64,000 nucleotides of DNA from Escherichia phage nepoznato. Of this stretch, positions 3,553-64,000 are shown in pieces. The notes under the pieces are model-generated. The model saw only the letters and a list, made by a program, of their open reading frames with translations, was not told the origin of the DNA and searched no databases. Positions within the stretch are counted from its first letter, which is position 1. Each line of letters opens with the position of its first letter. The position numbers and the translations under genes were made by a program. Location: the sequence record NC_052658.1, one strand, 5' to 3'.

Positions 3553-4380
3553 TTATCTTTTACGGACACTATACGGTTGGTGAAATCCGCTGTTCATTCT
3601 ACTGTATCCTGTAGGAGCATTTGTTGTTGCAGGGATAGCTACTGCTTTGAAAGTATTCTCTTTTGACAGAGTATTGAAACAAGAAGCAGCAGCATCGGGA
3701 ATGTCATCTTTAATAGTGGCTGTAGATCTTTCACCATTGAAAGATTCCAATTCTTTATAAAAGTGGGTTAAAGTTTCCACATTAGGGAAAGAATCTTCAA
3801 CAATATAAACAAAACCGTTTTGACACGCACTACTAAAAGGCATAAAACGCTGAAGCTTTTTCTTGTTGCCTGGCATAGCATCTGGTTTAACAACAAAACC
3901 CTCTAGAATAAGTTTCTTTGCAGACTCTGTATATTCTATTGTCCCAGCACCAGATGGGTCTTTAGGAAGAACTACTGTAACTTCTGGTCCATCAATCTTA
4001 CATTGATTTAGAATCAGGTTATCCCTTTCCCCAGGTAATCTTCGAAACCTTCCGAAAATTTTACTTTTCTCATCCACAGCATCATAATCATAGTCACCAA
4101 AGATGTAGATATTACCATCTTGGTCTTTACCCATTTTGACAGATGTTGTATAGTCTGGATAACGATAAGTTTCTGTAGGAACTGAAACAGCTTTATCCCA
4201 TGCTCGCATTAGTTTAAGATTATTAGGAACATCTTTATAAGATATCTTATGCAACCATTCACGTTGGAAGAAAGACTCTTTCTGTATACGTGCAAACCAA
4301 CAGCCGTCCAAGAGTTGTGCTCTTTTGATTGCTGTTTGTGATTTAAGCTGTGCTAAATAATTAGGGTTAAGCCTAATCAA
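3553..4380 (-). CDS. terL: terminase large subunit, C-terminal nuclease segment
   Basis: 275 aa; track start is TTG with no RBS; reading frame stays open upstream to an in-frame TAG at 4423-4425; C-terminal ...IKDDIPDAAAS... resembles terminase nuclease-domain end; same strand as ATPase segment 5356-6597. Confidence 0.5.
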   Translation of the reverse strand: MIRLNPNYLAQLKSQTAIKRAQLLDGCWFARIQKESFFQREWLHKISYKDVPNNLKLMRAWDKAVSVPTETYRYPDYTTSVKMGKDQDGNIYIFGDYDYDAVDEKSKIFGRFRRLPGERDNLILNQCKIDGPEVTVVLPKDPSGAGTIEYTESAKKLILEGFVVKPDAMPGNKKKLQRFMPFSSACQNGFVYIVEDSFPNVETLTHFYKELESFNGERSTATIKDDIPDAAASCFNTLSKENTFKAVAIPATTNAPTGYSRMNSGFHQPYSVRKR

Positions 4381-4559
4381 TTCTGGGTTATCAAATCTTT
4401 TTATTCTGGAGTAGTCGCAACTCTACTCCACGTTCTCTTATGAACTGCTGCACATCACTGTGCAGAATAGACTATATCATCATCTCCTAAGAGATGCTTT
4501 GCTTTTCGAGCAGCATTTGCTTCTGCCCTACTCCCTTTCGGGATAGTCGTTGAACTACA

Positions 4560-5240
4560 TCACCAATTGTAGTTATTAGATAAGTACGTATAGGTTTTCC
4601 TATCTTTAATACTCTTAACTACATTAAAACTTACACCGTATTTTTTAGCTATTTTATTTATTGATAGAATATTTTCTTGCAGCTTTTCACAAATCCCTAA
4701 GACTTTATCTTCACTTATTCTGTTGGAAGAGGGTATTTTTCTAAAGTTAAAGTCTTGTGAAATGTCTTTATATGTTCTGCCAGCTTTTATATCACTAACA
4801 ACAGATTGTGCCACATTATACATCTGACAGATATCTTTGTTACGTGATCCTTGCTCTAACAGTTTGCAAATTTCCACAGCAACAGTGTCTGGAATAGGTC
4901 TGTAGTCATTTATGACTTCTGTTCGTCTTAACCCTGTGGACATAGCATGAAGAGTATTCTCTTGTTCTGTTGTCCACTCAAGATTGTCTGCACAATTATT
5001 AAGTTTGTTGCCATCTTTGTGATTAACAAAAGGCTTATTTTCAGGGTTAGGCACAAATGCTTTTGCTATCAACCTGTGCTGTAATTCTTCTATCCTACTA
5101 CCATTTTCACAAATGGTTACTCCCTTGTAATCTCCAAGCATCTTATTTTCGCTTAGGAATTTTTGGGTGTATAAACTAAAAATACGACCATCGTATGTGG
5201 CGCAATAATGCGGGTATCCGATGAAACCTAAGTTTTTCAT
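4560..5240 (-). CDS. HNH homing endonuclease
   Basis: 226 aa; His-Me finger motif ...NHKDGNKLNNCADNLEWTTEQENTLHA; own promoter and RBS; inserted between the two terminase segments. Confidence 0.7.
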   Translation of the reverse strand: MKNLGFIGYPHYCATYDGRIFSLYTQKFLSENKMLGDYKGVTICENGSRIEELQHRLIAKAFVPNPENKPFVNHKDGNKLNNCADNLEWTTEQENTLHAMSTGLRRTEVINDYRPIPDTVAVEICKLLEQGSRNKDICQMYNVAQSVVSDIKAGRTYKDISQDFNFRKIPSSNRISEDKVLGICEKLQENILSINKIAKKYGVSFNVVKSIKDRKTYTYLSNNYNW

Positions 5241-5272
5241 TTTACTCTCCTACTAATATTTTTGGAGAAGTG

Positions 5273-5301
5273 ATTATAGCTGCTGATTATCTATTTGTCA
5301 A
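5273..5301 (-). promoter_or_regulatory. strong sigma70-like promoter (TTGACA, 17 bp, TATAAT) for the HNH gene
   Basis: Minus-strand reading GTCTATTGACAAATAGATAATCAGCAGCTATAAT, followed by RBS and the ATG at 5240. Confidence 0.6.
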
Positions 5302-5355
5302 TAGACTTCCCAGCAATTAACAAAGTTATTCGATGTGCATCGCTGCACAAAGCCA

Positions 5356-6597
5356 CTATTGATTAATGGTTCCACCAATGAACACAAATGTTTGTGGTTC
5401 AATAACCACTGTTTCACCTGTATTAGGGTTTTCCATGAAACAGTTTTCTGGATATTTTTCTTTCAGTTCTTCAGGTGTGTCAGCAAAAACAGGTTCATCG
5501 TTAACAATGATGAAATATTTTTGTTTACCACACATATCTTCTCTAGGATAACCGCCCTCATCGAGATAAGGTAATACCCAATTCAAAACCCAACTATCTG
5601 CATCGGGGTTACATGTGCACAACATGAAGCTTGTTTCTGATTCTGAACGCATACGTCCCAGAAGATAGAGCATTTCATATTGCGTGAAGTGGGTTAACTC
5701 GTCAAAACCTACCATTGAATACTGTGTACCCTGATGGTTTGTTTCTGCTGTTACGTTATCATTTTCCAAATGATCGAATTTGAGGGTTCCACCACCAGTG
5801 GCTTCAAAAATGATATCCATTGTACTTTCTTTTACGTGTGGTTGTAAAGGAAGATACAAACGTTTTGCTTCTGTAAACAGACCACCTGGTTTACGGTGAG
5901 CAGTGGTGTTCTTACGGAAAAGTATTCCACCAAACAAAGGATCTTTGTAGGCGTATTTTAAAGCTTTCAGCAATAGCAGACGAGACTTGCCGCTATTCCC
6001 AGTAACGAAGCAGTGATCGCCACGTCTAAAGACAATATAGCTGCTTGGAGTCTCAAAACAATATTTCTTATCATCTGTTGAAATAACCTCGTGTATTTTT
6101 AAGTAAGTGCTCTTTTTACCAGGTATGTTAAAAGGAACACGTTTACCGAATGGATTTTCTACATAACCTTGAAGTGGTTTTCCTATTTGCTGTAATGCAA
6201 TAAGATCTCCTACAAGAATCTCGAAATGTTTCTTTGATTTCTTTTTCTTATAGAATACAAAACGGTGTTCCATACTAAGTTCTTGGAACAATCCTACACC
6301 ATTTGTTATTCTGTATAGGTTATCTCCATTTAAATCGTATTCTACAAAATAAGGTGTTACCAATTCTAAACGCTTATTCTTAGGGTTGTATTGGTAAATA
6401 TCCTCTCCCGAATATTCACTAATCTGTCTCCAACCATCTTTTGTAAGATATTCCGTTTCAGCAGAAACACATCCAGCGGCACCACCATAAATCATAACTT
6501 CTGGCATTAAATCCATTGCAAGAGTCTGTTTACCTGGTTGAGCCTTTACTTCAATATCTACTCCAGCTAAACTACCTGCTGCCTTTTTCTTTGCCAC
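5356..6597 (-). CDS. terL: terminase large subunit, N-terminal ATPase segment, with putative mini-intein
   Basis: 413 aa; Walker B-like YSMVGFDELTHF; residues 43-201 start with Cys (CVSAETEYLTKDGWRQISE, Hint block A-like) and end with Asn followed by Ser; removing them joins ...YGGAAG to SGKSRLL..., giving a canonical Walker A GAAGSGKS. Confidence 0.55.
   Translation of the reverse strand: MAKKKAAGSLAGVDIEVKAQPGKQTLAMDLMPEVMIYGGAAGCVSAETEYLTKDGWRQISEYSGEDIYQYNPKNKRLELVTPYFVEYDLNGDNLYRITNGVGLFQELSMEHRFVFYKKKKSKKHFEILVGDLIALQQIGKPLQGYVENPFGKRVPFNIPGKKSTYLKIHEVISTDDKKYCFETPSSYIVFRRGDHCFVTGNSGKSRLLLLKALKYAYKDPLFGGILFRKNTTAHRKPGGLFTEAKRLYLPLQPHVKESTMDIIFEATGGGTLKFDHLENDNVTAETNHQGTQYSMVGFDELTHFTQYEMLYLLGRMRSESETSFMLCTCNPDADSWVLNWVLPYLDEGGYPREDMCGKQKYFIIVNDEPVFADTPEELKEKYPENCFMENPNTGETVVIEPQTFVFIGGTINQ
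5995..6471 (-). other. putative mini-intein (Hint domain, about 159 aa) inside terminase Walker A
   Basis: Codon 6469-6471 is TGT (Cys1); codon 5995-5997 is AAT (terminal Asn); next codon is AGC (Ser+1). Penultimate residue is Gly, not His, so splicing competence is uncertain. Confidence 0.45.
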
Positions 6598-8394: not shown

Positions 8395-8471
8395 TGGTCG
8401 GAATTGCAGGATTCGAACCTGCGACCCTACGCTCCCAAAGCGTATGCTCTACCAAACTGAGCTAAATTCCG
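8395..8471 (-). tRNA. tRNA-Pro (anticodon UGG), CCA encoded
   Basis: Acceptor CGGAATT/AATTCCG, D-arm GCTC-AGTTTGGTA-GAGC, anticodon stem TACGC/GCGTA with loop TTTGGGA, T-arm GCAGG-TTCGAAT-CCTGC. The 5' end overlaps the stop of CDS 8462-8980. Confidence 0.8.
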
Positions 8472-8980
8472 TTATTAATGTGCTTCCATGTGGTGTAAGT
8501 AACAATATCCTGTATTGTCCATCTTGAAACTTCATACTTTTTTGCCAATGCTCGTTGACTAATTTTAGTAGTCTCATACTCCATACGGATTTGAATAACA
8601 TCTTTTTCTGATAACTTGGCTTTATTATTTTCTTCCCCTTTAGGATTAACAAGTAATCCTGTGCTAACAGCGTGTGTCATATTCTCATGCTGTGTCGCCC
8701 ACTCCACGTTATCCTTGTGGTTGTTAAGCTTGTTACCATCTTTGTGATTAACAGATTTCTTGTTTTCAGGATTAGGATGAAAAGCTTTACAAACCAAACG
8801 GTGAATCTTAAAACAAATACTTTTTCCTTTTCTACCGCCAATTTTTGTTGCGTGGGTATAGTAACCTGTTTTAGATATGGTTTGGGATAGTATCTTATTA
8901 GTTCTCTTACTTCTTAATCTTCCGAGGTCACTTATTTGGAAGTAATTCTCATAACCAGCTACATCACGCCATTCTTCCAT
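8462..8980 (-). CDS. HNH homing endonuclease embedded in tRNA cluster
   Basis: 172 aa; motif ...VNHKDGNKLNNHKDNVEWATQHENMTHA, closely similar to the HNH protein at 4560-5240. Confidence 0.7.
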   Translation of the reverse strand: MEEWRDVAGYENYFQISDLGRLRSKRTNKILSQTISKTGYYTHATKIGGRKGKSICFKIHRLVCKAFHPNPENKKSVNHKDGNKLNNHKDNVEWATQHENMTHAVSTGLLVNPKGEENNKAKLSEKDVIQIRMEYETTKISQRALAKKYEVSRWTIQDIVTYTTWKHINNGI

Positions 8981-10469: not shown

Positions 10470-10544
10470 TGGTGGCCCTGGCTGGTTTCGATCCAGCTAC
10501 CTATCGGTTATGAGCCGACAGCTCTCCCATTGAGCTACAGGGCC
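10470..10544 (-). tRNA. tRNA-Met or Ile2 (anticodon CAU), CCA encoded
   Basis: Acceptor GGCCCTG/CAGGGCC, D-arm GCTC-AATGGGA-GAGC, anticodon arm GTCGG-CTCATAA-CCGAT, T-stem GCTGG/CCAGC with loop ATCGAAA. Confidence 0.7.
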
Positions 10545-10546
10545 AT

Positions 10547-10743
10547 AAATGTGGTAACAGAGACGCTGACGATTGTAGAGAACCGCTACATTCTCTAAGA
10601 CCAAGCCCAACTTTCAGCGTAAAAGTTCTTGAGCCGAGACTGTTCCTTTTCCTCTTTGGTAGCTAACCTCTGAAGAAGTAGTCTCTAACACTACCGCAGT
10701 GCAAGCCCCCTCTTAACAAAAGTCAACGACCCTGTTACCACAC
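10547..10743 (-). ncRNA. candidate structured leader RNA of the tRNA operon
   Basis: About 197 nt with no ORF between promoter 10756-10784 and the first tRNA; bounded by a perfect 10 bp inverted repeat GTGGTAACAG (10547-10556) / CTGTTACCAC (10734-10743). Confidence 0.3.
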
Positions 10744-10755
10744 TTGATGAACGTA

Positions 10756-10784
10756 TCCTAACATATGAAGGATACGTTTGTCAA
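10756..10784 (-). promoter_or_regulatory. sigma70-like promoter (TTGACA with weak -10) for distal tRNA unit
   Basis: Minus-strand reading TTAAATAACTATTGACAAACG...; same extended -35 context as promoter 9197-9226; -10 hexamer not confidently placed. Confidence 0.35.
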
Positions 10785-10791
10785 TAGTTAT

Positions 10792-11040
10792 TTAAGCATA
10801 TTCTGCTACTTCTTCACTATCTCTCTTTTCCAGAAGAGCAACAACCAAAGCTTCTGCGTTAAAAGTGTTAATTTCAAGATCCATCTCTCGCATCAGAGCC
10901 AAGAAATCAATAACTTTAACATCTTTAGTGATTACAATAGAAGTTGTACCATTGTTTTCAGATGTGTATTTTTCTGGATGGAAAAGAAAAACTGCATTGC
11001 CGTTACCATCTTCAAACACGTGTTTTTCTAATAGAGACAT
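10792..11040 (-). CDS. hypothetical protein
   Basis: Track ORF 10792-11106 trimmed to the ATG at 11040, which follows RBS AGGAGG (MSLLEKHVFEDGNGN...). Confidence 0.4.
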   Translation of the reverse strand: MSLLEKHVFEDGNGNAVFLFHPEKYTSENNGTTSIVITKDVKVIDFLALMREMDLEINTFNAEALVVALLEKRDSEEVAEYA

Positions 11041-11048
11041 TGTTCCTC

Positions 11049-11300
11049 CTAATCTGTTAGTTGTTCGTCCTCTACCAAGTTTGACACGAGAACGTCTGTT
11101 ATACATTGATGCTGATAAACCCTTTCGGGACTATCATCAAAAGCCAAACCTGTGCAAATAGAACAGAGGTCTGATTCCTTGATGACTCCATTTTTATCAC
11201 GTCTGGAGTGGTTTGTCAAATGCCTATTACAAGCACGGCACCTAAAATAAAAACTATTTTGCATATATCCTTCGAACCCCAAATGGGGAGTGATCGGCAT
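11049..11300 (-). CDS. hypothetical Cys-rich small protein
   Basis: 83 aa with CRACNRH...CSICTG (possible zinc-binding pairs). Confidence 0.35.
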   Translation of the reverse strand: MPITPHLGFEGYMQNSFYFRCRACNRHLTNHSRRDKNGVIKESDLCSICTGLAFDDSPERVYQHQCITDVLVSNLVEDEQLTD

Positions 11301-11337
11301 CTCCTCACTTCTAGTTTAGCACGAAGGATATCTTAAG

Positions 11338-11523
11338 TCAACTAGGAATAATTTTATCCTTTTTGGTTTCATAACCAGTCCAATCTAAATCCTCCCAGCC
11401 TTCATCATCGTCTAACACATTGTCATCGTCATAAGATGCAATGTTATAAATAGAACGTGGATTACAAGACATACAATCTTTAATAGGTACATGATGCCAT
11501 TTGCACGGATTCTCGCTAATCAT
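11338..11523 (-). CDS. hypothetical protein
   Basis: 61 aa ORF; first minus-strand gene next to the divergent control region. Confidence 0.3.
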   Translation of the reverse strand: MISENPCKWHHVPIKDCMSCNPRSIYNIASYDDDNVLDDDEGWEDLDWTGYETKKDKIIPS

Positions 11524-11569
11524 TGCACACCTCCATTCTTGTTAAGATGTTCCGTACTGTACTTCATAC

Positions 11570-11583
11570 TGATCTATAGATCA
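11570..11583. repeat. perfect 14 bp palindrome TGATCTATAGATCA in the divergent control region
   Basis: Read directly; flanked by GTACTGTAC-type inverted repeats (11552-11565 and 11720-11736) around an AT-rich core. Confidence 0.6.
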
Positions 11584-12004
11584 AGTATTATTTATAATAA
11601 TTTATTATTTTATTTTTAATTGATAGAAGTTGATCTGTACGTACCAGTTCTGATACACTGTACCTGTTTGTTAGATCTAATAATTATTTATTATTAATAT
11701 TTAATAATTATTAATCTAGTACGGAGTACAGTACTTGAGTACAGAGTACTACATCAACAACCTAAAACCTTAACTCGCTGCGCTCGTTAATAGATTTCTA
11801 GGGTAGCATACTTCGAACACAAAAGTCAAGAGTTTTATTAAAATTATTTTCTGTGTGCAAAAAACCTTGCTTAAACAGGTAGCAATAGTATAGCCTATAA
11901 CATAAGCTTCATAAGAGGCTCGTAGAGCAAGTTCACTTACTAGGTAAGGTGATTTATCATCTTATATATAAAAAGTGCGTCAGAGACGCGTTTAGGAGGC
12001 TAGA

Positions 12005-12328
12005 ATGAGATTTACAAGACAAGAGGTAGTTGTGCTGGACGAAGCAATGACAATGATCGTCTTTTACTACGAGGATATCTTCTGTGCAGCATATCATTTA
12101 AATGACATTCAGATCGAATGGCAGCAGATAGCATTTTTGTTGGACAAGAGTACTCATTTGGATGGCTTTGAGTATTTGGAATGGGATGGTGCAAAGGAAG
12201 TTAAAATTGTAGGGTTAAATCACGATCAGATTGTTGACATGCAATGTAAGTTGTGTCATTATCAGTTCTCAAACAAAGTCAAACTCGAAAGGCAATTGGA
12301 GGTGGTTAAAGATGATAGCACTAATTAG
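12005..12328 (+). CDS. hypothetical early protein
   Basis: 107 aa; RBS AGGAGG before the ATG; first plus-strand gene. Confidence 0.45.
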   Translation: MRFTRQEVVVLDEAMTMIVFYYEDIFCAAYHLNDIQIEWQQIAFLLDKSTHLDGFEYLEWDGAKEVKIVGLNHDQIVDMQCKLCHYQFSNKVKLERQLEVVKDDSTN

Positions 12329-12428
12329 TGAGAATCCAGTCCTGACAACAATTGTTCTGATTTTTGCCATGTGTGTGGTTCACGATGTTCTGGTAAGTTA
12401 TTTTGACAACAAAGGAGGTAAGAAATGA
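12312..12428 (+). CDS. hypothetical small membrane peptide
   Basis: 38 aa hydrophobic peptide (MIALISENPVLTTIVLIFAMCVV...); RBS GGAGG before the ATG at 12312. Confidence 0.3.
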   Translation: MIALISENPVLTTIVLIFAMCVVHDVLVSYFDNKGGKK

Positions 12429-12619
12429 AAGACGTTATTCAAATGGTATTCCGTGTAACTCTAGATGGTATACACGTTGTTAAAGGCACACAGAACTACA
12501 CAGAAGCGAAAGAACATTTCCTGGAATGGATTGAGACGTTGAAGACACAAAACGTTTCCTACAACCGTGTGACGCTCACTGGCGACCATACCCCAATCAT
12601 GGAGTACGTAAAGAAATGA
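12425..12619 (+). CDS. hypothetical protein
   Basis: 64 aa; RBS GGAGG; stop/start overlap with the next gene. Confidence 0.4.
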   Translation: MKDVIQMVFRVTLDGIHVVKGTQNYTEAKEHFLEWIETLKTQNVSYNRVTLTGDHTPIMEYVKK

Positions 12620-12855
12620 GCAAATATCCAATTACAGGTGTAACCTATTCTTGTGTATCAAAAGGTGGCTTATATACGGTCGTGGAATTTCCAAAACCTG
12701 CCGGAATATCTAAAGTGTTTGATCCTGTTGTTATCTATGAAGATCTTAGAACAGGTCAACGTTATTGGAGATTTGTGAATGACTTTTTAGATCGTATGGA
12801 GGTAGTAAGTGGCGAAAACACCGAAGAAGTTATCAAAGCCAAAGAACGTTACTAA
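12616..12855 (+). CDS. hypothetical protein
   Basis: 79 aa ORF, co-oriented. Confidence 0.4.
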   Translation: MSKYPITGVTYSCVSKGGLYTVVEFPKPAGISKVFDPVVIYEDLRTGQRYWRFVNDFLDRMEVVSGENTEEVIKAKERY

Positions 12856-13162
12856 GAAACCGAAAAACGAGGTTCTCAAAGTAGCCAAATCAGTTCCTAA
12901 GAAAGATAAGTTTGATACGGAGGCATTCGTCTTTGACACACCAATCGAGAAGATTGAAGAAGCGTTGCAACGTCTTGAGGAGCAGGAGGCAGATCCAATG
13001 GCTGAACCACTCACGGAAGACCAAATCTACTGGTTCGGATGGTGGACGCTCAACCTGCCCGATGCAAAGCGAAGAGGAATGACTTCAGTCCCTACTTGTG
13101 CAAAAGAGGCTGCTGTGTTAGGTTTGTATGATAAATCTAAGAAGAGGAGCAAAAAGAAATGA
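12809..13162 (+). CDS. hypothetical Lys-rich protein
   Basis: GTG start 6 nt after RBS GGAGG; Lys-rich N- and C-termini; overlaps the previous gene. Confidence 0.35.
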   Translation: MAKTPKKLSKPKNVTKKPKNEVLKVAKSVPKKDKFDTEAFVFDTPIEKIEEALQRLEEQEADPMAEPLTEDQIYWFGWWTLNLPDAKRRGMTSVPTCAKEAAVLGLYDKSKKRSKKK

Positions 13163-50372: not shown

Positions 50373-50574
50373 TAAGACTAGGATTCATAGCAAAAGCTTT
50401 GAAAGTTGTTATGTCATGACTAACATTAAAACTAACGCCTTTTACTTTCTCTAGTATTTGAACTTTCGTCTCTCCGTCCCACGGTAGTATGATAACACCA
50501 TCTTCTGTGATCAACCACCAATGGTTCTCTCCATCTCGTGAATCTTTTGCTTTGTATAGAAAATTGGAACTCAT
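50359..50574 (-). CDS. hypothetical protein
   Basis: 71 aa ORF after RBS AGGAGGAAG; first gene after promoter 50613-50641. Confidence 0.4.
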   Translation of the reverse strand: MSSNFLYKAKDSRDGENHWWLITEDGVIILPWDGETKVQILEKVKGVSFNVSHDITTFKAFAMNPSLIAEW

Positions 50575-50612
50575 TCTTCCTCCTGTTCGGTATTATTCAC
50601 TTGTGAGACACA

Positions 50613-50641
50613 ATGTAACACAAGCTTTGTGAGTTTGTCAA
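50613..50641 (-). promoter_or_regulatory. sigma70-like promoter (TTGACA, 17 bp, TTACAT) with operator-like inverted repeat in spacer
   Basis: Minus-strand reading CCTTGACAAACTCACAAAGCTTGTGTTACAT; spacer contains CACAAAGCTTGTG. Confidence 0.45.
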
Positions 50642-50934
50642 GGATCTAATTACATTCTACAGAAGAAGAGGGTTAATAACTATAGGAATAGTCTTACTAT
50701 AGGTGCAATACTAGTTAAGAGTTAGATTGATAGGTAAGATTTATCTTAAACACATAATTGATAGGTGAACCAGCATTGACTTTTTCAAAAAAATATGGTA
50801 CCCTAAACATATGTTTACGAGCGATAGCGAGTAGTAGATTTCTATATAATAATGTTTCATGTTACTCACGATAGTGAGGTATGAAACGTAAGTGAAGGTA
50901 GATAAACTATGATCATCTATCTACCATCTATTAA

Positions 50935-51144
50935 TCAGTATAGATCTAATGTTAGACTAACAGTTATCCAACAAACAATAACAGTCCATATAACAAGTAA
51001 TGATCTACAAAATACATCCCATTCAAATACATTGTATGTTAACCATTCTCCCATCACAACAGAAGAACCTAACCAACATCCAACAATAACTATAATCCAA
51101 TAAAAGAATCCTACAGTGGAGTATATAGCAAAAGCTTTTAACAT
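50935..51144 (-). CDS. hypothetical small membrane protein
   Basis: 69 aa with two hydrophobic segments. Confidence 0.35.
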   Translation of the reverse strand: MLKAFAIYSTVGFFYWIIVIVGCWLGSSVVMGEWLTYNVFEWDVFCRSLLVIWTVIVCWITVSLTLDLY

Positions 51145-51557
51145 CTTTCCTCCAGAAGTTGTTCAACAGTTTGACGAGTATGATTGTCCCAGTAAACCTT
51201 AGTGAAGTCAAGAGTTCCTTGTTCGTTTCTCTTAGTTTCGAAGAAGTATCCGCCTTCTCTTTCTACTCTGTCTCTAATGTGCTCTATGAGGTGCTTTTTA
51301 CAAGATGCTGATAAACAGTAGTCATACTCCCCACGAAGTAACGCTATAGCTGCAAGTCTGTTATCACCAACTTGAGATATTGTCCAAGAAAGCATACTAC
51401 CTTCTATACCTAAAGGTGTTTGTCGGATTGAATATCCACCATACCGACTGATAGAAATTATGGAGAGTGGTTCTCCTGTTAGAGATCTTCCTAATGCACC
51501 TTCTGTTGGACTTCCTTCAATAATACGTTTGAAAAAAGCTTTGATCTTACCTAACAT
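51138..51557 (-). CDS. hypothetical protein
   Basis: 139 aa ORF. Confidence 0.4.
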   Translation of the reverse strand: MLGKIKAFFKRIIEGSPTEGALGRSLTGEPLSIISISRYGGYSIRQTPLGIEGSMLSWTISQVGDNRLAAIALLRGEYDYCLSASCKKHLIEHIRDRVEREGGYFFETKRNEQGTLDFTKVYWDNHTRQTVEQLLEERC

Positions 51558-63803: not shown

Positions 63804-63998
63804 TTATTTCGGGACACCCTGTTTCATGGCAATCATGGCAAGAATATCTAATAGAATCAATATCATATGGCAAAAATCATGGCGTATACGTAAGAAGTGC
63901 TTAACGCGAATTTTCGGGCCGTCAGGTCCACGCAGCGACAATTCCCAAATATCATGCGAATGAGAATAATTATCATTCGTATTCAATGACTTATGCAA
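63804..63998 (-). CDS. hypothetical protein
   Basis: 64 aa ORF at window edge inside a repeat-containing non-coding stretch; weak support. Confidence 0.25.
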   Translation of the reverse strand: MHKSLNTNDNYSHSHDIWELSLRGPDGPKIRVKHFLRIRHDFCHMILILLDILAMIAMKQGVPK

Positions 63999-64000
63999 GG

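Follow-up and report, generated by a model that had tools for sequence, protein, structure and literature searches.

A probable compound divergent control region with four predicted sigma70 promoters between the opposed gene blocks of Escherichia phage nepoznato

The locus considered here is the 481-bp intergenic gap at positions 11524-12004 of a 64-kb window, i.e. the whole 64,000-nucleotide stretch of Escherichia phage nepoznato (NC_052658.1) that was analysed, and it can be compared with described promoters, replication origins and promoter-proximal hairpins. Strong sigma70 promoters with AT-rich upstream (UP) elements include E. coli rrnB P1 and the early promoters of phages T4 and T5. Among origins, T4 oriF and oriG each consist of a middle promoter with a downstream DNA-unwinding element and are R-loop primed, the T7 primary origin consists of the promoters phi1.1A/B followed by an AT-rich region, and E. 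coli oriC carries AT-rich 13-mers (GATCTnTTnTTTT) with a GATC cluster. Promoter-proximal hairpins are represented by boxB of the lambda and P22 nut sites (N antitermination) and by the 5' stabiliser of the ompA leader, and related small structures by the d(GCGAAGC)/GNA mini-hairpin and the DNA-hairpin promoters of phage N4. For rV5-like phages, sigma70-like early promoters with UP elements have been reported, with the Certrevirus form AAAA(N3)TGTTGAC(N19)TATAAT (PMC7344957), and in rV5 bidirectional promoters are expected at the strand switches (PMC3606486).

Set against these systems and against related phages, the gap is probably a compound divergent control region in which four predicted host-type sigma70 promoters alternate in orientation (PL, PR1, PL2 and PR3). 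It is real and conserved, though for the most part an ordinary kind of phage control region, and the only parts with some novelty are a hairpin cassette at PL2 and a purge of GTAC sites. The gap is flanked by a 61-amino-acid (aa) gene on the minus strand (11338-11523) and a 107-aa gene on the plus strand (12005-12328), and these flanking open reading frames (ORFs) bear out an earlier description of the region, made from the letters alone and referred to here as the sequence-only reading, as lying between a minus-strand and a plus-strand gene block.

A sigma70 position weight matrix (PWM) was scanned over the whole window, giving 640,000 scored positions, in which PL2 scored 12.2 bits (rank 40, the top match of the gap), PR1 11.8 bits (rank 48) and PL 11.5 bits (rank 59). 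PR3, the promoter closest to the 107-aa gene, was found by a consensus scan and has a PWM score of 9.9 (rank 124). In each -10 hexamer the second base is A and the sixth is T, and the 17-18 bp between the hexamers fall within the 16-18 bp typical of sigma70 promoters (consensus TTGACA and TATAAT). Among the best 39 matches outside the gap, 34 are co-oriented with the local genes, from which the phage evidently uses sigma70-type promoters.

The window is approximately 98% identical to genomes of Phapecoctavirus (ESCO13, phAPEC8, ZCKP1 and others) in the subfamily Stephanstirmvirinae, and the gaps of eight close relatives were gathered by synteny and compared in one alignment. More distant gaps were gathered by synteny via the flanking 107-aa protein rather than by pattern, from phiWec188, phiWec179 and phiWec190, from phi92, EmilieFrey and KKP_3264 (Justusliebigvirus), from Klebsiella phage FKP3 and from Citrobacter phage Tr1. 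In a PWM scan of the phiWec188, phi92, EmilieFrey, FKP3 and Tr1 gaps, the top matches occupied equivalent positions; their hexamers were conserved and their spacers unrelated. The PL homologues in these five gaps are among the top matches (TTGACT or TTGACC, 17-18 bp, then TAGAGT, TACACT or TAGTAT), those of PR1 in other lineages combine TTGATC, TTGTAA, TTGTTA or TTGATT with TACTAT, TAGTAT or TATAGT over 17-18 bp, and those of PL2 (TTGACn, 17-18 bp, TGnTACCCT) are among the three best matches in all six syntenic regions, again with unrelated spacers. PR3 has homologues in FKP3 (TTGACA, 17 bp, TATCAT) and Tr1 (TTGACT, 17 bp, TACCAT). Invariant columns of the five-lineage alignment comprise the PL -35 box (GTCA), the TTG of PR1, CTCGCT-CGCTCG, TAGGGTA-CA and GTCAA. 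The reading of these elements as putative promoters is well supported by this conservation, and of the earlier suggestion of a divergent promoter and possibly a regulator site, the promoter part stands, with four predicted promoters at conserved positions and an AT block between back-to-back -35 boxes, while the regulator part is unsupported. Between PL2 and PR3, phiWec188, phiWec179, phiWec190 and PsgM04F have a 70-aa ORF with its own promoter, in the place of which ~80 bp of unrelated sequence are all that is present in the window (approximately 11860-11940) and in its close relatives.

A 216-bp core of the gap holds ten GTAC sites, and both this clustering and the AT-rich blocks greatly exceed chance. 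The very AT-rich core of TTATT-type repeats previously remarked upon is indeed present, with eight TTATT against 0.61 expected and with the two most AT-rich 40-mers of the window (39/40 AT each, starting at 11586 and 11679), and GATC shows no more than a mild excess, with four sites where 0.89 are expected (P = 0.013). AT block 1 has a counterpart at the same position between the same two promoters in all five other lineages examined, and its length varies by indels of 7-12 bp among relatives, which fits two independent UP elements. Upstream of the -35 boxes, in the position of UP elements, the adjoining 22 nt are 100% AT for PL, 91% for PR1 and 86% for PL2, and by its position and composition AT block 1 may be two abutting or shared putative UP elements. 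AT block 2 is clade-specific, being absent from phi92, FKP3, Tr1 and phiWec188. In the nieznany assembly (MN850598.1), which begins inside the gap, ~80 bp are lacking, comprising what remains of AT block 1 and the greater part of the PR1 region, probably through an assembly break or collapse at AT-rich repeats.

The gap promoters, as predicted, are similar to described sigma70 promoters with UP elements in their 17-18 bp spacing, in the extended -10 (TGn) of PR1 and PL2, in the AT tract upstream of the -35 box and in heading blocks of small early genes. They differ in that the gap pair shares one AT block, in TTGATC rather than TTGACA, in the TAC-type -10 boxes, and in the interleaving of two gap promoters, such that PR1 and PL2 are face to face. 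The strand switches of rV5 likewise separate large opposed blocks, with skew flips that follow transcription and with divergent promoters expected; however, rV5 belongs to the Vequintavirinae, its promoters were found at one of two expected sites, and an UP block, an inverted duplication and a leader hairpin are not described there (PMC3606486).

Table 1. Coordinates of predicted and observed features of the gap, together with the second cassette copy elsewhere in the window
Feature	Position	Strand	Details
Inverted repeat, left arm	11554-11609		Covers PL -10, spacer, -35 and part of AT block 1
PL (predicted)	11556-11584	-	-35 TTGATC 11584-11579; 17-bp spacer; -10 TACAGT 11561-11556; predicted start ~11549
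Palindrome TGATCTATAGATCA	11570-11583		Five of six PL -35 bases (AGATCA, 11578-11583) and part of the PL spacer
AT block 1	11585-11629		~45 bp separating the -35 boxes of PL and PR1, which stand back to back
PR1 (predicted)	11630-11659	+	-35 TTGATC 11630-11635; 18-bp spacer; extended -10 TGaTACACT (hexamer 11654-11659); predicted start ~11666
AT block 2	11678-11716		Contains palindrome TTAATAATTATTAA 11701-11714; inside the predicted PR1 and PL2 transcripts
Inverted repeat, right arm	11679-11734		AT block 2 and part of the right GTAC cluster
Right GTAC cluster AGTACGGAGTACAGTACTTGAGTACAGAGTACT	11717-11757		5 of the 10 GTAC sites
PL2 leader hairpin	11770-11790	-	Apical 13-mer CGAGCGCAGCGAG (minus-strand reading; plus coordinates 11774-11786)
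PL2 (predicted)	11800-11829	-	-35 TTGACT 11829-11824; 18-bp spacer; extended -10 TGcTACCCT (hexamer 11805-11800); predicted start ~11793
PR3 (predicted)	11932-11960	+	-35 TTCACT 11932-11937; 17-bp spacer; -10 TATCAT 11955-11960; predicted start ~11967
5' untranslated region stem-loop GCGTC-AGA-GACGC	11977-11989	+	PR3 leader; 4 nt upstream of the Shine-Dalgarno sequence AGGAGG (11994-11999)
Second cassette copy	50776-50832	+	TTGACT; 17 bp; TGgTACCCTA; 12 nt; CGAGCGATAGCGAG; in another intergenic region

Under this arrangement the gap would be the main divergent control region of a phage that relies on host RNA polymerase with sigma70; no RNA polymerase gene is recognisable within the window. 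PL and PR1 would act back to back, with AT block 1 lying where UP elements would meet RNA polymerase alpha subunits to the left and to the right. The region left of the gap is all on the minus strand, with two more small ORFs and nine tRNA genes followed by the terminase, a Mu-like portal and a protease, and PL would drive the 61-aa gene (ATG at 11523), the two further small ORFs and the tRNA block. Leftward transcripts would reach the three small ORFs and the tRNA cluster, with the terminase, portal and protease lying beyond. The plus strand continues to ~47 kb, with small genes of unknown function first and genes for an RNA ligase, a DNA ligase, RdgC, ThyX, ribonucleotide reductase and a Sir2-family protein farther right, such that rightward transcripts would reach small early genes and genes of nucleotide metabolism over ~35 kb. 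PL2 would lie ~125 bp downstream of PR1 and face it, so that the two divergent units would overlap at their 5' ends, a convergence that may permit interference or antisense effects. In the PR3 leader, the stem-loop folds with z = -1.6, and phi92 and Tr1 carry different complementary pairs (GCTC...GAGC) at that place. The unannotated 480-bp gap, which about 70 public phAPEC8-like genomes share, is in this way turned into a testable promoter map, and predicted starts for two large divergent units could be useful for engineering or timing expression in therapeutic-candidate phages.

Across the subfamily the gap is best conserved at TAGGGTAGCA...GTCAA plus CTCGCTGCGCTCG. On the minus strand this reads as an extended -10 promoter and then, 11-15 nt past TACCCTA, as CGAGCG-N-AGCGAG. 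An identical apical 13-mer is present in the syntenic regions of all lineages examined. The PL2 hairpin has a GC/GC stem with a GNA loop and is closed by a UUAA/UUAA lower stem, and the two flanking G.A/A.G juxtapositions would also pair. Covariation was assessed over 14 distinct cassette copies, in which the 13-14-nt apex, CGAGCG-N(1-2)-AGCGAG, varies in no more than one or two nucleotides of the loop (GAA, GCA, GAUA, GGGA). Below the apex, three base pairs covary, with a score of 0.345 against 0.173 +/- 0.041 in shuffled controls, none of 500 reaching it, and at most 0.155 in slid controls; further, eight G.U cells would be mismatches on the opposite strand. Because the stem covaries and these G.U cells fix the strand, the hairpin most likely forms in the transcript.

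Most of the subfamily records listed carry the cassette at two to three places per genome, with 318 places in the 146 records listed, and its copies, where checked, lie upstream of genes in the same orientation. Besides the second copy in the window, which forms a back-to-back pair with a strong promoter on the minus strand (50641-50612), copies occur at 129.8 kb in ESCO13, at 129.8 kb in phi92 and in a Justusliebigvirus-type contig (L031). Two copies in Justusliebigvirus-type genomes lie upstream of NAD-related genes, i.e. upstream of annotated PRPP synthetase and NAMPT genes in phi92 and, as read from ORF translations without a domain search, upstream of NadR- and PnuC-like genes in L031. 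A link between the cassette and NAD-salvage genes was nevertheless dropped, as other copies precede unrelated small genes and the gap copy precedes small ORFs and tRNAs. The leader in L031 seems by eye to hold a terminator-like hairpin and then a U-run, and further stem-loops, e.g. CUCAC-GAUA-GUGAG, seem by eye to follow the 50.8-kb copy (50776-50935), which may make a small or antisense RNA.

Database comparisons placed the cassette in no described RNA family, with Rfam 15 giving only chance-level scores of 14.5-16.2 bits over 11450-12050 and 50500-51200, against gathering thresholds of 40-70 bits, and only the adjacent tRNA gene over 10500-13000. Pattern scans of IMG/VR, for which ~10 and ~200 chance matches were estimated for the two patterns used, recovered the subfamily copies plus many matches that are probably chance. 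An unrelated metagenomic phage lineage (L021, L022 and L028 and about 25 other IMG/VR loci) carries a TACCCTA...CGAGCGAAGCGAG inverted pair; this pair, TACCCTATCCCCCCCAACGAGCGAAGCGAG, is inverted at a distance of ~70 bp and has no recognisable sigma70 -35 box, and could reflect homology, GCGAAGC-type convergence or chance. The 14-mer CTCGCTGCGCTCGG may also occur near the pBR322/pUC origin, a likeness given no weight.

Compared with boxB and the ompA leader, the PL2 hairpin is similar in lying ~10-30 nt from the predicted start, in the unchanged apex of its GC stem and in its GNA/GNNA loop, but its apex carries two G.A juxtapositions and boxB does not. As with lambda nutL and nutR, the cassette stands at several operons per genome; however, no boxA-like element was seen by reading and no candidate binding protein was identified. 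The N4 promoters differ in strand, as the G.U pairs put the PL2 hairpin on the RNA-like strand and the N4 hairpin is on the template strand. An N4-type polymerase gene was not seen in the 64-kb window, and none is known from the rest of the genome. The hairpin most likely would stabilise the RNA at its 5' end or be bound by a regulatory protein. A tentative extension, which we consider possible rather than probable, is that PL2, with its unusual -10 hexamer TACCCT(A), belongs to an undescribed cis-regulatory cassette across the Stephanstirmvirinae in which the hairpin is the site of a phage or host RNA-binding factor, and that PR1 and PL2 also form an interference switch at the main strand switch of the genome. 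Both window copies of the cassette oppose something, i.e. another promoter (PR1) or neighbouring genes. If correct, the cassette would be a nut-like antitermination, timing or decay-control signal that co-regulates a few early operons. The conserved promoter-plus-hairpin cassette, which has no Rfam description, may be of wider interest.

Several points weigh against the four-promoter explanation. Literature searches found no transcriptome and no mapped promoter, start site or origin for the subfamily, the -10 hexamers are non-consensus (TACAGT, TACACT, TACCCT), two of the -35 boxes are TTGATC, and the UP-element role is read from position and base composition only. Transcription from PL2 toward PR1 would seem wasteful if it served neither interference nor antisense regulation, the 50.8-kb cassette copy points against its neighbouring minus-strand ORFs, and this explanation assigns no function to AT block 2 or to the right GTAC arm.

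An unlikely and minor alternative, which does not exclude the promoters, is that the gap is or doubles as a replication origin, in which the AT blocks would be DNA-unwinding elements, a transcript running from PR1 into AT block 2 or from PL2 into both blocks would open or prime the duplex, and the GATC sites might give Dam/SeqA timing. The gap does contain the least stable DNA of the window, as an unwinding element should, with the least stable 50-mers of the 64 kb starting at 11671 (+5.1 standard deviations) and 11575 (+4.8 standard deviations) and the 150-mer from 11571 being the window-wide stability minimum, and predicted promoters directly abut both AT blocks. As at the T4 and T7 origins, a near-pure AT tract of 39 bp follows a promoter, here a predicted one, within ~12 nt of the PR1 start. 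However, this arrangement of promoter and downstream AT block (PR1 followed by AT block 2) is present in this clade only, whereas the AT block conserved in all lineages is upstream of both promoters that flank it and would be fully explained as UP elements; PL2 reaches this conserved block only after ~75-130 nt. The cumulative GC skew has its minimum at the gap, but the skew changes sign exactly where gene orientation does, both here and at ~47 kb, and is fully accounted for by the change in transcription direction, to which the skew of rV5 has likewise been attributed (PMC3606486).

The GATC sites offer a further likeness to an origin, with four in ~110 bp and with GATC or AGATCT recurring in the phiWec188 and Tr1 gaps. 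Relative to oriC, the gap twice has GATCT followed by AT-rich sequence (11571 and 11674) at a similar GATC density, but it lacks a DnaA-box array, half of the close relatives have lost the first GATC, and the second copy is clade-specific. The single DnaA box (1.7 expected) is not conserved, and DnaA, IHF and Fis-like sites in the gap are at or below chance. Initiator-type repeats (iterons) are not conserved either, the GTAC repeats being clade-specific and decaying, and no replication gene is adjacent.

The promoter reading also accounts for much of the symmetry of the gap. Both symmetric elements of the sequence-only reading were recovered, i.e. the perfect 14-bp palindrome TGATCTATAGATCA at 11570-11583 and inverted repeats about 170 bp apart, consisting of GTACTGTAC (11554-11562) and its reverse complement GTACAGTAC (11727-11735) at a separation of 173 bp. 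Perfect palindromes of at least 14 bp number ten in the window against 5.1 +/- 2.3 expected from Markov shuffles, two of them in the gap (the second being TTAATAATTATTAA), and the palindrome taken alone is near chance and weak evidence. Its right half, AGATCA, holds five of the six PL -35 bases in the other-strand reading and is unchanged in the close relatives, and the left half, which falls within the PL spacer, carries mutations in four of the eight (TAATC... in tuntematon, KKP 3954 and nieznany, TGATT... in phAPEC8). The dyad symmetry is not kept by selection, as the palindrome is intact in only 4/8 close relatives and absent in other lineages, and it is most likely the PL -35 box plus spacer, a by-product of the promoter.

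The elements GTACTGTAC, which overlaps the PL -10 box, and GTACAGTAC are the cores of a longer imperfect inverted repeat of ~56 bp, with a local alignment score of 55 against 31.7 +/- 5.0 (maximum 50) in 500 shuffles. The same 55 bp of the left arm are marked 'repeat_region' in GenBank MN850618, as is the right arm (55 bp) in MN850648. By alignment, the right arm is a degenerate inverted copy of PL, in which the TACAGT -10 is kept at 11727-11732; it has no usable -35 box, and rightward sigma70 PWM matches out of the arm all score at most 6.4 bits. In this segment the window is at least 35 nt longer than Tr1, phiWec188, phi92 and FKP3, and AT block 2 with the right GTAC arm is most likely a clade-specific, degenerate inverted duplicate of PL. 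The palindrome, inverted repeats and restriction-site cluster illustrate that striking symmetry can arise from promoter hexamers and local duplication.

GTAC is the lowest of all 16 palindromic tetranucleotides in the window (55 sites in 64 kb, observed/expected 0.31); other low values are those of CCGG (0.35), GGCC (0.38) and CTAG (0.49). Ten of the 55 sites fall within 11554-11750, against 0.19 expected (P about 1e-14). These are the most variable positions of the gap, with ten GTAC in the window, nine in phAPEC8, three in KKP 3954 and one in BI-EHEC, the losses nearly always yielding GTAT or ATAC, as in the right cluster of BI-EHEC and KKP 3954, while the rest of the gap is nearly identical in these two phages. 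Genome-wide, 23 of 37 aligned GTAC sites (62%) are lost between the window and BI-EHEC at 2.6% divergence, and because the loss is genome-wide, GTAC appears to be under negative selection and dispensable for gap function. The simplest explanation is restriction avoidance, with what looks like purging still ongoing, and such site-specific purging may be of wider interest. In BI-EHEC, GTAC-to-GTAT changes convert the PL -10 box from TACAGT to TACAAT, nearer to consensus. The GTAC repeats could form an RNA hairpin (z = -3.0), the pairs of which are lost in BI-EHEC without compensating changes, as read from the close-relative alignment. Iterons or operators made of GTAC repeats were ruled out, these being the least conserved positions of the gap.

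More generally, it appears quite improbable that the palindrome and GTAC repeats are operators for a DNA-binding protein of phage or host, or a Dam-sensitive switch, of the divergent promoters. Such a role would agree with the perfect dyad across the PL -35 box and spacer, with the GATC (a Dam site) in each TTGATC -35 box, with a GTAC cluster far beyond chance and with the 56-bp inverted arms that bracket PR1. However, in the four relatives in which the dyad is broken the change is always in the half outside the -35 box, and the first GATC is gone in the same four genomes; the GTAC sites fall from ten to one or three in otherwise nearly identical gaps; and neither the palindrome nor the GTAC repeats are present in the homologous gaps of phi92, FKP3, Tr1 and phiWec188. 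In view of this variation, the regulator binding site once suggested is not supported at the palindrome or the repeats. A regulator encoded next to the gap was likewise ruled out, as the ten flanking small proteins match families of unknown function only, with no DNA-binding domain recognised among them.

That the gap is the end of the genome, a packaging site or a hot spot of recombination, its AT-rich repeats lying at the termini, as might be read from the break of the nieznany assembly (MN850598) inside the gap and from the direct terminal repeats reported for subfamily members (PMC12695924), is very improbable and largely refuted, since other records are continuous across the gap and the Schickermooser record, for which a 328-bp terminal repeat is reported (PMC6563267), starts and ends with an exact 329-bp repeat whose inner 99 bp map to window 63902-64000 at the far end, placing the physical end ~52 kb from the gap, so that a terminus or pac site at the gap was rejected and the genome end should lie ~230 bp past the right edge of the window.

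Other observations concern the sequence records and the genes to the left of the gap. Near-identical records have been deposited as Campylobacter, Acinetobacter and 'Dompiswa' phages, and a more diverged relative, 83% identical across part of the gap, as Pseudomonas phage PsgM04F. The hosts named in these records may be unreliable. Within the tRNA cluster, between tRNA-Pro and tRNA-Gly, the minus-strand ORF 8462-8980 carries NUMOD4 and HNH endonuclease domains. In ESCO13 the same two tRNA genes are separated by a tRNA-Gln gene, with no ORF annotated at that place. The terminase large subunit is apparently split on the minus strand (window 3553-6597), with Terminase_6N in ORF 5356-6597, a weak match to Terminase_6C, just under the Pfam cut-off, in ORF 3553-4380, and an HNH endonuclease with a helix-turn-helix domain (ORF 4560-5240) between the two, which suggests an intron or a homing-endonuclease insertion.

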